Shown here: positions 9,126 through 14,147 of the stretch, in pieces
Numbering within the stretch: position 1 is the stretch's first letter
Layout: each line of letters begins with the position of its first letter
Assembly (NCBI GenBank): GCA_033551855.1
Contig: JAWSUI010000065.1
Location: 1-18,646 of the forward strand
Direction of reading: 5' to 3'
DNA from: Deferrisomatales bacterium
Lineage (GTDB): Bacteria > Desulfobacterota > Deferrisomatia > Deferrisomatales > JACRMM01
Length of the DNA: 18,646 nucleotides
The notes under the pieces: generated by a model
Told to the model about the DNA's origin: nothing
Databases searched by the model: none
The model's input: the letters and a program-made list of their open reading frames with translations, nothing else
Position numbers and translations under genes: made by a program

Positions 9126-11039
9126 ATGACCGAGCCCTATCCCCTGCTGAGCCGGGTCGAGGACCCTGCCGACCTGCCGGGCCTGGAGCGCGAGGAGCTG
9201 GAGCAGCTCGCCCAGGAAGTCCGCAGCTTCATCCTGGAGAAGCTCTCCCCCGTGGGGGGCCACCTGGCCTCCAGCCTGGGGGTGGTGGAGCTCACCATCG
9301 CCCTGCACGCGGTCTTCCGCTCGCCGGAGGATCGGATCATCTGGGACGTGGGTCACCAGTCCTACGCCCACAAGATCCTCACGGGCCGCCGCGACGCCTT
9401 CGGGTCCATCCGCCAGCGAGGGGGACTGTCGGGTTTCCCCAAGCGTACCGAGAGCCCCCACGACGCCTTCGGCACGGGGCACTCCTCCACGTCCATTTCC
9501 GCCGGACTGGGGATGGCCGTGGCCCGGGACCTGGGAGGGGGCACCCGAAAGGTGGTGAGCGTCATCGGCGACGGTGCCCTCACCGCGGGCCTGGCCTTCG
9601 AGGGGCTGAACCACGCCGGCCACCTGGATCGGGACCTGGTCGTCGTGCTCAATGACAACGAGATGAGCATCTCCCCCAACGTGGGCGCCCTCTCGTCGTA
9701 CCTCTCCCGGATTCTCACCGGCGACCTGTACTCCCGCTTCCGCAAGGACGTGACGGACCTCCTTCGCTCCATCCCCAGCTTCGGGGGGCCCATGGCCCGG
9801 CTCCTCAAACGGGTGGAGGAGCACGTGAAGGGATTCCTCTCGCCCGGCATGATCTTCGAGGAGTTGGGCTTCACCTACGTGGGCCCTCTGGACGGGCACA
9901 ACCTGGGGCATCTCGTCACCACCTTCCAGAACGTGCGCAAGTTCTGCAAGCCGGTGCTGGTCCACGTGGTCACCCGGAAGGGCAAGGGCTTCCCGCCGGC
10001 GGAGAAGGAGCCGACCGCCTACCACGGCATCGGGCCCTTCGACCCCTGTGTCGGCCAGTGCGTCGGCCCGGGGGGAGCGCCCGTCCCGAGCTACACCGAG
10101 GTCTTTCGCGACGCCCTGGTTCACCTTGCGGAGAAGGATCCCCGCATCGTGGCCATCACCGCGGCCATGCCCGAGGGCACGGGGCTGGACCTGTTCCGGG
10201 AGCGGTTCCCGGACCGGTTCTTCGACGTGGGCATCGCCGAGCAGCACGCGGTCACATTCGCCGCGGGGCTCGCGACCGAGGGCTACGTGCCCGTCGTGGC
10301 GGTCTACTCCACGTTCTTCCAGAGGGCCTACGACCAAGTGGTCCACGACGTGGCCCTGCAGCGGCTCCCCGTGGTGTTCGCCCTGGATCGGGCGGGGCTC
10401 GTGGGGGCCGACGGCCCCACCCACCACGGGGCCTTCGACCTCTCCTACCTCCGCCACATCCCGGACCTGGCGGTCCTCGCCCCGGCCGACGAGGACGAGC
10501 TCCAGCACGCCCTCGCCACGGCGGTGTCCTTGGGGGCACCCGCGGCGGTGCGCTACCCCAGGGGCTGCGGCCCGGGGGCGCCCCTGGCCCCCGAGCCTCG
10601 CGCCCTGCCCCTGGGGAAGGGCCGGGTGCTCAGCCGGGCGGGGACACCCGGGGGGGTCCTGGTGGCGAGCGTCGGCACGGTCCTGGAGGCTGCCCGGGTC
10701 GGGGTGGAACAGGCTGGGGCCGAGGGCATTCAAGCCAGCCTCTTCGATGCCCGATATGTCAAACCGCTGGACCGGGAAGCGCTGGTGGAGCTGGCACGCG
10801 GCGCCGAGGGGCTGGTCACGGTGGAGGAGAACGCAGTCGCGGGCGGCTTCGGCTCGGCTGTGCTCGAGTGCCTGGCCGAGACCGGCGTCCTCCCTCCCCG
10901 GGTGCGACTCCTCGGCCTTCCGGACCGTTTCGTGGAGCACGGAAGCCAGGGGGAGCTCCGCCGGGACCTGGGCCTCGACGCCGCCGGGGTGGCGCGGGCG
11001 GTGCGGGAAGCGGCAGGCAGGACCCAGGGCGACAGATGA
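9126..11039 (+). CDS. dxs: 1-deoxy-D-xylulose-5-phosphate synthase (637 aa)
   Basis: GGHLASSLGVVELT, WDVGHQSY, GDGALTAGLAFEGLN, DVGIAEQHA, YSTFFQRAYDQ and DRAGLVGADGPTH. Confidence 0.97.
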   Translation: MTEPYPLLSRVEDPADLPGLEREELEQLAQEVRSFILEKLSPVGGHLASSLGVVELTIALHAVFRSPEDRIIWDVGHQSYAHKILTGRRDAFGSIRQRGGLSGFPKRTESPHDAFGTGHSSTSISAGLGMAVARDLGGGTRKVVSVIGDGALTAGLAFEGLNHAGHLDRDLVVVLNDNEMSISPNVGALSSYLSRILTGDLYSRFRKDVTDLLRSIPSFGGPMARLLKRVEEHVKGFLSPGMIFEELGFTYVGPLDGHNLGHLVTTFQNVRKFCKPVLVHVVTRKGKGFPPAEKEPTAYHGIGPFDPCVGQCVGPGGAPVPSYTEVFRDALVHLAEKDPRIVAITAAMPEGTGLDLFRERFPDRFFDVGIAEQHAVTFAAGLATEGYVPVVAVYSTFFQRAYDQVVHDVALQRLPVVFALDRAGLVGADGPTHHGAFDLSYLRHIPDLAVLAPADEDELQHALATAVSLGAPAAVRYPRGCGPGAPLAPEPRALPLGKGRVLSRAGTPGGVLVASVGTVLEAARVGVEQAGAEGIQASLFDARYVKPLDREALVELARGAEGLVTVEENAVAGGFGSAVLECLAETGVLPPRVRLLGLPDRFVEHGSQGELRRDLGLDAAGVARAVREAAGRTQGDR

Positions 11040-11836
11040 AGCCCGTACGCCTGGACCAACTCCTGGTGGAACGGGGGCTCGCCCCGAGCCGGGAGAAGGC
11101 CCGGGCCCTCGTCCTCGCGGGGGCGGTCATCGTGGGGGAGCACCGGGCCGAGAAGGCCGGCGAGCGCGTGGACCCCTCTGCCCCGCTCCGGCTCAAGGGG
11201 GAGGTCAACCCCTACGTGAGCCGGGGGGGCCTCAAGCTTCGGGCGGGACTCCAGGCCTTCGGGATCGACCCAGCGGGCAGGGTGTGCGTGGACGTGGGGG
11301 CGAGCACCGGCGGCTTCACCGACTGTCTGCTCCAGGCGGGCGCCCGCCGGGTCTACGCCGTGGATGTGGGGTACGGGCAGTTGGCCTGGAAGCTGCGGGA
11401 AGACCCTCGGGTGGTGAACCTGGAGCGCTGCAACATCCGGTACCTGGAGGCCGACCGCATCCCCGAGAGGGCCGGGCTCGTGGTCGCGGACGCCTCGTTC
11501 ATCTCCCTGCGGCTCGTGCTCCCGAAGATCCGCGAGCTCCTGGCGCCGGGAGGGGACGTGGTCGCCCTGGTCAAGCCCCAGTTCGAGGTGGGCAGGGGCC
11601 AGGTGGGAAGAGGCGGGGTGGTGCGGGACGCGGCCCTGCGCCGGCGCTCCGTCGATGACGTGCTGGCGGCGGCCCGGGAGCTCGGGTTCCGGGCGGCGGC
11701 GGCTGTGCAGTCGCCGGTGCCGGGAGCCAAGAAGGGCAACGTGGAGTACCTCGTGCACCTGAGAGTGTGTGAAGAAATCGTCGCGAGCACGCCGGAGTGC
11801 AAGGCGCCGGCGAGCGAACGACGACCCGTCGAGTAG
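11036..11836 (+). CDS. tlyA: TlyA family rRNA (cytidine-2'-O)-methyltransferase (266 aa)
   Basis: RLDQLLV S4 domain, YVSRGGLKL, DVGASTGGFTDCLLQ, VDVGYGQL, SFISL, LVKPQFE and GNVEY. ATGA overlap with dxs. The last ~24 residues derive from a probable insertion. Confidence 0.95.
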   Translation: MKPVRLDQLLVERGLAPSREKARALVLAGAVIVGEHRAEKAGERVDPSAPLRLKGEVNPYVSRGGLKLRAGLQAFGIDPAGRVCVDVGASTGGFTDCLLQAGARRVYAVDVGYGQLAWKLREDPRVVNLERCNIRYLEADRIPERAGLVVADASFISLRLVLPKIRELLAPGGDVVALVKPQFEVGRGQVGRGGVVRDAALRRRSVDDVLAAARELGFRAAAAVQSPVPGAKKGNVEYLVHLRVCEEIVASTPECKAPASERRPVE

Positions 11837-11901
11837 ACAGGCGAGGAGTGCACCGGCAACACCGCAACCCCCGGCCGCGCGGCAGATGGGTTCGCGCACC
11901 C
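11763..11901. mobile_element. Probable degenerate MITE-like palindromic insertion (~139 bp) in the tlyA 3' end
   Basis: Imperfect terminal inverted repeats GAGTGTGTGAA (11763-11773) and TTCGCGCACCC (11891-11901) match at 8/11. They are flanked by direct TGA copies (11760-11762, 11902-11904) within duplicated CCTGAG contexts. No transposase. Confidence 0.5.
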
Positions 11902-12011
11902 TGAGGCTCGGGGGGCTCGGATCCGGGGAGAGGGCCTCGGAAACTGCCGGGGCGTGAGGGGGCCGCAGAGCCCGCCCGGCGGGCACGGGGACGCCCCATA
12001 CGATGGGCTCC

Positions 12012-12074
12012 GATCGGGATCGGGATCGAACCCCCTGTCACGGTCGACGCCGCTACCGATTTCGATCCCGATGC
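12012..12074. repeat. Hexamer-based inverted repeat
   Basis: Perfect 12-bp IR ATCGGGATCGAA (12019-12030) / TTCGATCCCGAT (12061-12072). The left arm is GATCGG-GATCGG-GATCGA and the right arm is CGACGC-CGCTAC-CGATTT-CGATCC-CGATGC. Confidence 0.75.
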
Positions 12075-12151
12075 GGCCGCCCGGGAGCGGCCCCGGCGGT
12101 CCGGCCTTCCGGCAGACCGGTCAACAGGCTCTGAGAAAGGGGGCGCGCCCC

Positions 12152-13162
12152 ATGGCCATGTTCAACTACGCGGCCCGCGAGATGACGGCAAAGATCGTGT
12201 ACTACGGGCCGGGTCTCTCGGGCAAGACGAGCAGCATCCAGCACATCCACGGCAGGGTCAGCCCCAAGAGCAAGGGGAAGCTCGTCAGTCTCGCCACCGA
12301 GACCGACCGCACGCTGTTCTTCGATTTCTTTCCGGTGGAGTTCGGCCAGATCGGCGGCTTCAAGGTCAAATTCAATTTCTACACCGTGCCTGGTCAGGTC
12401 TTCTACAACACCACCCGCAAGTTGGTCCTCAAGGGCGCCGACGGGGTCGTCTTCGTGGCGGACTCCCAGCCGGGGATGATGGAGCAGAACCTCGAGAGCC
12501 TCGAAAACCTGCGGTCGAACCTGGAGGCGCACGGCATCGACTGGGAGACGGTGCCCTTCGTCCTCCAGTACAACAAGCGCGACCTGCCCGGGGCGCTTCC
12601 CGTCGAGGAGATGCGGGCCCGGCTCAACCCGAGACGGGTTCTCGAGTTCGAGACCTCCGCCACCACCGGTGTGGGCATCATGGAGGCCATGAAGGCCGTC
12701 TGCAAGCTGGTCCTCGAGGACGTCCAGCAAAAGCAACGCCATGGCGCCGCCCACACCCGGCCCGAGGCGGCGAGGGCGCCCGCCTCCCGTCCGGGCGGCG
12801 AAATCCCGATGCCTGCCGGAACCCCGGAGCGGAGGAGGGAAGGAGTGGCGGAGAAGGCCGCCGCCGTGCGGGTCCCGGGCACCGGGAGCGTGGCGTTCAC
12901 CCTCACCCTGCCGGTGCGCCTCAAGATCCCTGCCGGCCTGGAGGGCACGGACCTCCAGGTCCAATTGCGGGTCCGCAACCGGTCCGGCGGGGAGGTAGCC
13001 CTGGGAGACCTCTCTGCCGAGCTCTCCCGGAAGACCGGGGATGCCGGCCGGTCGGAGCCCCAGCCCGGCCCCCCGCGGGAGCCCGCCCCGGAGCCTCGGC
13101 CCCAGCCCGCCCCGGAGCCCAAGCCCCAGAAGGGGTTCCTCTCGCGTCTCTTCGGCAGGTGA
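12152..13162 (+). CDS. MglA-family small Ras-like GTPase with ~140-aa C-terminal extension (336 aa)
   Basis: KIVYYGPGLSGKT (G1), LATETDRTLFFDF, YTVPGQVFY, LKGADGVVFVADSQ and QYNKRDLP (G4) closely follow Myxococcus MglA. A purine-rich AAAGGGGG lies upstream of ATG 12152. No mglB adjacent. Confidence 0.92.
   Translation: MAMFNYAAREMTAKIVYYGPGLSGKTSSIQHIHGRVSPKSKGKLVSLATETDRTLFFDFFPVEFGQIGGFKVKFNFYTVPGQVFYNTTRKLVLKGADGVVFVADSQPGMMEQNLESLENLRSNLEAHGIDWETVPFVLQYNKRDLPGALPVEEMRARLNPRRVLEFETSATTGVGIMEAMKAVCKLVLEDVQQKQRHGAAHTRPEAARAPASRPGGEIPMPAGTPERRREGVAEKAAAVRVPGTGSVAFTLTLPVRLKIPAGLEGTDLQVQLRVRNRSGGEVALGDLSAELSRKTGDAGRSEPQPGPPREPAPEPRPQPAPEPKPQKGFLSRLFGR
13079..13126 (+). repeat. 24-nt tandem duplication encoding EPAPEPRP/QPAPEPKP
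   Basis: GAGCCCGCCCCGGAGCCTCGGCCC followed by CAGCCCGCCCCGGAGCCCAAGCCC, in the Pro-rich linker of the GTPase. Confidence 0.75.
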
Positions 13163-13295: not shown

Positions 13296-14147
13296 ATGAC
13301 CGGCATCAACCCGGGGGATGCGGGGGCGGGAGGCGGCTCCTCGGGCCGCGCGGCGAGGGGGGTGCCGGACCCCGACCCGGGGCACCGGGTCGAGTTCGTC
13401 AGCGCCGGACCGGGCGACCCCGGGCTCCTCACCCTGGCCGGCGCCGAGGCACTTCAGCGGTGTTCGGCGGTCCTGGCCCCCGGCACCTTTCAGGAGAGCT
13501 TCGCCCCGCTCCTGATCGGCAAGGAGGTGGGAAGCCCCTTCCAGATGCCCCACGCCGAGGTGGTGGCCTGGGTCGAGGAGCGGCTGACCCGGGGCTCCGT
13601 GGCGTTCCTGATCCCCGGGGATTTCAGCTCCTTCTGCCCCTTCCAGTCCTACGTCGCCCACTTCGGCCCCCGGGGCCGAGTGCTCCCCGGGGTAGGAGCC
13701 CATGCCGCCGCCGCCGCCCTCCTGAAACGGGGTTTCGACATTGCCGGCGTGGCCCACGCCACGGTGCTCACCAGTCCCCGCGCCTCCACGGCCTCGGGGG
13801 CAAGGGTTCGCCTGCGCGACTACGCCCGCCCGGGGCATACCCTGATCCTCTACATGAACGATCTGCCCCTGCCGGAGCTCACCACCGAGCTCCGGGCCGG
13901 GTTCGGCACCGACGTGCCGATTGCCCTCCTGGAGCGGCTGTCCCTGCCCGACGAGCGGGTGACCGTGGGCACCCTGGCCTCCCTCCCTTCCCTGGTGGGA
14001 GAGCGGGACCCCTTCGCCCTAGCCCCGAAGCACCGGGAGCCCGCCCTGGCACTGGTGATCGCGGGGGACGCCCTGGCGGCCACCGAGGACCCCTCCTGTT
14101 GGGACCGACGGCACGAGCGGCTCTGGAAACCCCGGGGGGTCCGGTGA
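13296..14147 (+). CDS. Tetrapyrrole (corrin/porphyrin) methylase family SAM-dependent methyltransferase, CbiF/CobM-like but divergent
   Basis: VEFVSAGPGDPGLLTLAG, IPGDFS (normally GDP), VLPGVGA, TLILYM and ERLSLPDERVTVGTL follow the TP_methylase layout. Start uncertain (ATG 13296 or GTG 13362). Confidence 0.75.
   Translation: MTGINPGDAGAGGGSSGRAARGVPDPDPGHRVEFVSAGPGDPGLLTLAGAEALQRCSAVLAPGTFQESFAPLLIGKEVGSPFQMPHAEVVAWVEERLTRGSVAFLIPGDFSSFCPFQSYVAHFGPRGRVLPGVGAHAAAAALLKRGFDIAGVAHATVLTSPRASTASGARVRLRDYARPGHTLILYMNDLPLPELTTELRAGFGTDVPIALLERLSLPDERVTVGTLASLPSLVGERDPFALAPKHREPALALVIAGDALAATEDPSCWDRRHERLWKPRGVR

Follow-up and report, generated by a model that had tools for sequence, protein, structure and literature searches.

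Can a bacterial Ras-like switch carry its own membrane anchor? The bacterial switches of this kind described so far are soluble single domains that reach the pole via partner proteins, and the question is raised by one gene in an 18,646-nucleotide stretch of a Deferrisomatales bacterium (contig JAWSUI010000065.1 of assembly GCA_033551855.1, forward strand), referred to here as the window. The gene encodes an MglA-type GTPase with a long C-terminal extension, and the last ten residues resemble the membrane-targeting peptide of Escherichia coli MinD. Our favoured reading, to which we assign a probability of roughly 45%, is that the protein is a lineage-wide second MglA whose G-domain is leashed to a clustering beta-strand module and a membrane tail. 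The sequence anatomy, its conservation, the fixed locus and the lack of an adjacent mglB gene were established directly, and the functional steps set out below are all ones that we infer.

An extended Group-1 MglA

The frame at 12152-13162 translates into 336 amino acids without an internal stop, and the codons for KGFLSRLFGR are followed directly by TGA. A longer protein starting at an upstream GTG (11954) was ruled out by homologue alignment; the start was placed at 12152 because homologues begin at the same methionine. A preliminary description, made from the sequence alone, had reported an intact MglA G-domain followed by about 140 extra residues, and both statements hold: Arg53 in ETDRT and Gln82 in TVPGQ are present, and the extension past a 195-residue MglA counts 141 residues. 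The same description had divided the extension into a Pro-rich spacer and a terminal KGFLSRLFGR. The terminal peptide lies where it was placed, at 13130-13159, but a conserved module at residues 231-288 had been overlooked, and the extension has four parts (linker, module, spacer and tail). The features of the gene are as follows.

12152..13162, + strand: gene for an extended Group-1 MglA-type GTPase of 336 amino acids (from translation)
12152..12736, + strand: MglA G-domain, residues 1-195, with P-loop GPGLSGKT, Arg53, G3 motif TVPGQ with Gln82, and NKRD
12152..12736, + strand: MglB-contact residues F56/F57/F59 and K181/K185, within the G-domain
12737..12841, + strand: Ala/Pro-rich linker, residues 196-230, predicted to be disordered (predicted local distance difference test, pLDDT, <50 at residues 206-229)
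12842..13015, + strand: conserved beta-strand module, residues 231-288, a likely assembly or binding element (from alignment, profiles and AlphaFold)
13016..13129, + strand: Pro/Glu-rich spacer, residues 289-326
13130..13159, + strand: terminal basic-amphipathic 10-mer, a candidate MinD-type membrane-targeting sequence (predicted helix at residues 330-333)

Residues 1-197 matched MglA of Myxococcus xanthus with an expectation value (E) of 4.5e-76. When the AlphaFold model was searched with Foldseek, ranks 1-14 were all MglA, with a best E of 8e-23 and ~60% identity to the M. xanthus protein. Among 67 aligned family members, R53, T54, F56, F57, D58 and Q82 are invariant, F59 is present in 66, and a lysine or arginine occupies position 181 in 67/67 and position 185 in 66/67. 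PMC6785124 assigns these residues to catalysis, Mg binding or MglB contact in MglA. According to the accessible part of PMC4316618, Group-1 MglA is marked by an intrinsic arginine beside the G2 threonine and by TVPGQ as its G3 motif; with the arginine finger, TVPGQ and a Ras-like fold all found, the protein is a Group-1 MglA. Its 336 residues exceed the 150-240 residues of canonical single-domain MglA (a size window taken from the accessible part of the same survey), and the tailed loci lack the neighbouring mglB of canonical MglA genes. The MinD/ParA class of deviant Walker A ATPases, which dimerise on ATP, was not matched, the domain being MglA/Ras-like. Across the 67 proteins the linker ranges from 34 to 125 residues and the spacer from 0 to 45.

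A conserved MinD-like tail

Conservation of the tail was assessed among the best 120 of 8,000 scored homologues, in which 65 close homologues sit above a clear score gap. The same kind of terminal peptide ends 63 of these 65; of the other two, one is labelled as a partial record and one has an apparently frameshifted end. Among 64 tailed proteins, residues at the four hydrophobic positions are confined to F, L, M and W, the arginine and the last phenylalanine never change, and a pair of Lys/Arg residues usually comes first; codons vary synonymously between genomes. A strict tail pattern had a single match among the 21,553 open frames of this genome, the GTPase gene itself. Across 21 genomes of the order the tail was found in 19, as 18 full tailed genes and one fragment with module and tail; of the other two, one holds a copy cut at a contig end and one (81% complete) gave no match.

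The membrane-targeting sequence of E. coli MinD is given as KGFLKRLFGG in the available text of PMC5471200, identical to KGFLSRLFGR at 8/10 positions, and with the conservation above, the MinD-like tail of the preliminary description was borne out. The MinD-type pattern of a short terminal helix with a hydrophobic face and basic flanks is present, with an only moderate hydrophobic moment. In tandem copies the MinD peptide has served as a membrane tag that can be moved between proteins; a single copy of the E. coli peptide is reported as too weak, two being needed (PMC13537761, PMC8155659). Judged from sequence, the tail is probably an inner-membrane anchor. MinD-like tails are a recurrent bacterial device, and a likeness over ten residues can arise by convergence.

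A looser tail pattern also picked out two other proteins of this genome, whose family names were read from sequence: an ExeA-like AAA ATPase (contig C52, 987-2216), another P-loop NTPase, with a Pro-rich spacer and terminal RRFLRRLFGW, and a PBP1B-like protein.

A beta-strand module between linker and tail

The module spans about 58 residues and is kept in the family while the linkers on both sides vary in the alignments. The alignment reads as four segments resembling strands, in which hydrophobic residues alternate, and it has one invariant proline. In the full-length AlphaFold model the module reached pLDDT 73-81 with no strand assigned by DSSP, the program that did find the G-domain strands; folded alone, it reached pLDDT 81 and a predicted template modelling score (pTM) of 0.47, with no DSSP output. 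Strands that are modelled confidently yet remain unpaired hint that the module may fold only against other chains, either of itself or of another protein.

Catalogued relatives of the module were not found. Pfam annotation of 16 module carriers showed no family common to two of them, a profile search of the PDB had a best E of 0.11 and no significant sequence match, and the module retrieved no match with Foldseek, one row (Z 2.2) in a VIA fold comparison and no usable match in the ESM Atlas. Blank family and fold searches of this kind do not establish a new fold. Run against 1.84 billion representatives, the module profile gave 15 matches: 8 belong to the family, some as fragments, and 7 are long proteins built of repeats (Calx-beta, Rib, cadherin and similar, Ig-like). 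The repeat proteins were rejected as homologues, their scores being sums of weak stretches. Of 301 genomes sampled from the phylum, the profile matched 10/10 in the order and 1/291 others, the latter by chance; a weak match in genome G054 (E 0.007) does not lie in an MglA. A search for longer fused forms returned ten matches, all of them family members, a result of little weight.

The module also reaches beyond the close homologues. Compared with a tailed sister group, its profile gave 90.6% probability against 2.1% for the reversed control, and this sister set (P0067-P0070, P0073 and P0093) carries the same module, with a looser tail in 5/6. Comparison with the terminal strands of untailed long MglAs gave 18-44% for four groups, one of which barely exceeds its reversed control, and about 1% for two. 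These profile scores are no more than suggestive of homology between the module and those terminal strands.

The tailed gene is an orphan by locus

With an MglB profile, 0/20 tailed loci had a match within 1.5 kb and 0/6 wider loci had one, and the same profile does find MglB beside short paralogues, which served as positive controls. Because no MglB lies near the tailed loci, the gene is an orphan by locus, but not by genome. A Roadblock/MglB-like gene occurs in 21/21 genomes of the order, and the present genome holds an mglB-mglA pair on contig C4 (87081-88042), whose mglB is the sole Roadblock gene found in the genome. The preliminary description had called this an orphan MglA, which is true of the locus only, and had suggested looking for a separate mglBA operon, which is the pair on C4. 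It had also proposed a polarity or positioning system distinct from MglAB. This is doubtful, since the MglB-contact residues are kept, MglB-like genes are found throughout the order and MglB is also the GTPase-activating protein (GAP) of SofG, an orphan MglA of M. xanthus, according to the available text of PMC11016934.

The MglA of the C4 pair is itself divergent, with a TQGDRT switch and a long tree branch. A third MglA-like gene on contig C42 (4204-4960; L123) is degenerate, with an altered P-loop, no arginine finger and AAPGQ at G3, and looks like a decaying or repurposed copy. It precedes a pcm-like gene, where its relatives (L023-L031) keep a response regulator-mglB-mglA arrangement; no mglB was found beside the C42 copy.

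A branch of long MglAs without adjacent MglB

Outside the order, MglA loci were divided into long (270 residues or more) and short; related loci among them are not independent. We could count 151 of 157 loci, 138 with at least 700 bp upstream and 13 with less, and six were not parsed by motif. Where at least 700 bp was available upstream, MglB was nearby for 0/13 long MglAs and for 125/125 short ones, a split that marks the whole branch of long MglAs as unstudied. The long proteins come from Acidobacteriota, Nitrospirota, Myxococcota and metagenome contigs, and mostly have strand-like ends without a tail. Untailed long MglAs without a nearby MglB were seen at loci L041, L043, L049, L055, L063, L072, L085, L094-L097, L104, L135, L136, L139, L142 and L146. 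The untailed long MglAs of several phyla are possibly one overlooked family.

In G-domain trees from quick searches, one branch had every long protein on the same side, with support of 97 in the Shimodaira-Hasegawa-like approximate likelihood ratio test (SH-aLRT), and of 96 after three long rows were dropped. The trees differ on whether the tail arose once: tailed proteins form one clade (SH-aLRT 98) in one quick tree and fall in two places in FastTree, and a quick search with the three long rows dropped gave two changes.

The 2014 survey (PMC4316618) set such proteins aside by length: MglA-like sequences of >240 residues were left out, amounting to 39 of 488, of which 14 were MglB-coupled (its Table 1). 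On novelty, which the preliminary description had left to a search, full-text searches with subscription journals largely outside their coverage turned up no description of an MglA with an amphipathic tail or this beta module, and the tailed family is apparently undescribed in print. Its architecture is a known switch, a known anchor and one uncatalogued module, conserved across an order. The locus contributes its orphan position in genomes that keep intact mglBA pairs, a beta module, and membership of a branch of long orphan MglAs.

The locus is fixed across the order

The gene is flanked in the window by two genes of conserved synteny.

11039..11836, + strand: tlyA-like S4/FtsJ methyltransferase, upstream neighbour
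13296..14147, + strand: tetrapyrrole methylase (PF00590), downstream neighbour

In 19/19 loci dxs and tlyA lie upstream, in 18 the tetrapyrrole methylase lies downstream, and genes for ispA and an M23 peptidase recur in wider stretches. In five related loci tlyA is separated from the GTPase gene by 22-38 bp, against 315 bp here (11837-12151). This longer gap holds a perfect 12-bp inverted repeat (12019-12030 / 12061-12072); it has no Rfam match and no promoter or terminator consensus, and is not repeated in the genome.

Two further records bear on the distribution of the locus. The ispA-dxs-tlyA-mglA-methylase block recurs in L034, from a record titled as a Kiloniellaceae bin, a sign that the bin may be mislabelled. 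Genome G016 carries on contig C45 (L022/L216) a second, divergent tailed copy away from the standard locus; both its module and its tail are intact, and a ParA-like open reading frame follows it (read by eye).

A proposed mechanism and its alternatives

In the favoured reading, the tail would insert into the inner membrane and the beta module would cluster several chains, letting weak helices bind together by avidity. We put slightly better than even odds on self-assembly of the module in any nucleotide state, with several leashed G-domains displayed on the resulting membrane-bound cluster. Constitutive clustering is preferred to nucleotide-driven oligomerisation because the module is modelled confidently but without internal strand pairing. 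Nucleotide-dependent oligomerisation had been the route to avidity in the preliminary description; it is not supported, as both the variable linker and the spacer intervene and the tail-adjacent beta module is a likelier means of clustering. On the favoured reading, GTP or GDP would govern whether the G-domain binds effectors, and would not govern membrane attachment. MglB encoded elsewhere would switch the G-domains off in trans, and such trans stimulation of GTP hydrolysis is, by analogy with SofG, reasonably likely. As its likeliest output the protein would place the type IV pilus motor, a role reported for SofG (PMC4085708); we see about even odds that the output is positioning or activation of this motor.

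A broader scenario, which we think rather unlikely, would have a cross-phylum MglA branch lose its linked MglB and gain a beta assembly module, to which this order added a membrane peptide, yielding a self-built multivalent GTPase cluster that borrows its GAP in trans in cells without a Min system. Were it true, a single chain would serve as both landmark and switch, and the clusters, a bacterial counterpart of Ras nanoclusters, could pattern the cell.

Several points weigh against the favoured reading. With a hydrophobic moment of 0.55, the best 10-mer of the tail ranks at the 86th percentile among 3,715 coding-like C-termini, and short MglAs reach at least as high a moment in their last helix. 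The moment, put forward in the preliminary description as a check on the tail, turned out unremarkable and was rejected as proof of an anchor because it does not discriminate, so the case for the anchor rests on conservation and on likeness to the tested MinD peptide. The tail, mostly aromatic and lysine-flanked, may be strong enough to bind alone, and avidity would then be unnecessary. A program failure may explain why DSSP gave nothing for the isolated module. The beta2 phenylalanines may be conserved for the sake of the fold or of a surface that meets effectors, and not for MglB binding. The neighbours of the gene are housekeeping genes, none pointing to pili or polarity, and because type IV pili occur almost throughout the order (PilB above cut-off in 19/21 genomes), their co-occurrence discriminates little. 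Flagellin was found in 10/21 genomes and not in this one.

The unpaired, confidently modelled strands could fit binding to a different protein equally well. The module would then bind a bactofilin landmark, a pilus component or an effector by strand addition, with no self-assembly, and localisation would need both the tail's lipid contact and the landmark. This is an unlikely explanation, though one with several facts behind it: orphan SofG is placed via bactofilin (available text of PMC4085708), this genome encodes one bactofilin, and the untailed long orphan MglAs of other phyla also end in strands, which argues that the strands have a role apart from the anchor. Yet no partner gene travels with the tailed locus in related loci, and a search of this genome with the module profile gave no other carrier. 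Less probable again is that the protein switches as MinD does, with GTP-dependent oligomerisation through the G-domain toggling membrane binding and the whole possibly replacing Min-type positioning. The tail is near-identical to the E. coli MinD peptide, which the accessible MinD reports describe as needing dimerisation; MinE was found in 0/21 genomes of the order (control 4/14), and no MinD exceeded the family cut-off in this genome. However, solved MglA-GTP complexes hold an MglA monomer on an MglB dimer (available text of PMC6785124), the long variable linkers uncouple the G-domain from the tail, and no MinE-like activator is linked to the gene.

Two other explanations turn on what the tail and the locus are for. 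The terminal 10-mer might be a helix that docks on a protein (an effector, a protease adaptor or a GAP) and not a lipid anchor. Its invariant arginine and phenylalanine are stricter than lipid binding alone would require, and a similar tail ends the PBP1B-like protein, whose C-terminus should be outside the cytoplasm; we nonetheless regard docking as improbable, given that the hydrophobic positions swap freely among F, L, M and W behind a basic patch and that the near-identical MinD peptide is reported to work as a portable membrane tag. We give very little weight to a protein tethered to the membrane for envelope or housekeeping control tied to its operon (ispA, dxs, amidase, M23 peptidase, LptD) and not for motility. 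Synteny fixed across the order's families and the short distance to tlyA in five related loci speak for such a role, but the second copy in G016 keeps its architecture off the locus, and MglA gene neighbourhoods are reported to vary widely in the accessible part of PMC4316618.

Comparison with known systems

The lineage-wide second MglA favoured here can be compared with SofG of M. xanthus, likewise an orphan Group-1 MglA that coexists with mglBA and, in the available text of the SofG reports, uses MglB in trans and positions PilB/PilT. Compared by description, SofG differs in being 239 residues long and bactofilin-placed, with no membrane tail described in the accessible sections of those reports. 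Group-1 MglA of M. xanthus and Thermus thermophilus (PDB 6h17, 6izw, 5ymx, 3t12) shares Arg53, TVPGQ and the MglB-contact residues; the protein described here differs in its linker, beta module and terminal amphipathic peptide, its lack of an mglB neighbour and its separate tree branch. With E. coli MinD it shares 8/10 tail residues and their position at the extreme C-terminus of a P-loop nucleoside triphosphatase, but the tail here belongs to a protein whose Ras-like domain lies more than 100 residues before it, and not to a ParA/MinD ATPase. The GTPase, MglB and liposomes would make a small system in which to ask if tethering and clustering suffice for spatial patterning.

Eukaryotic Ras and Rab proteins have a hypervariable linker and a C-terminal lipid anchor. 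As here, a flexible leash joins their G-domain to a membrane anchor of basic and hydrophobic character; the likeness is one of analogy and not of membership, the anchor here being a peptide and not a lipid, with an extra beta module and MglA-type catalytic machinery. The analogy to Arf drawn in the preliminary description is weak, because the anchor here is C-terminal and uncoupled from the switch. If the favoured reading is true, bacteria have arrived, with no lipid modification, at the Ras/Rab plan in which a switch is held on a leash at the membrane.
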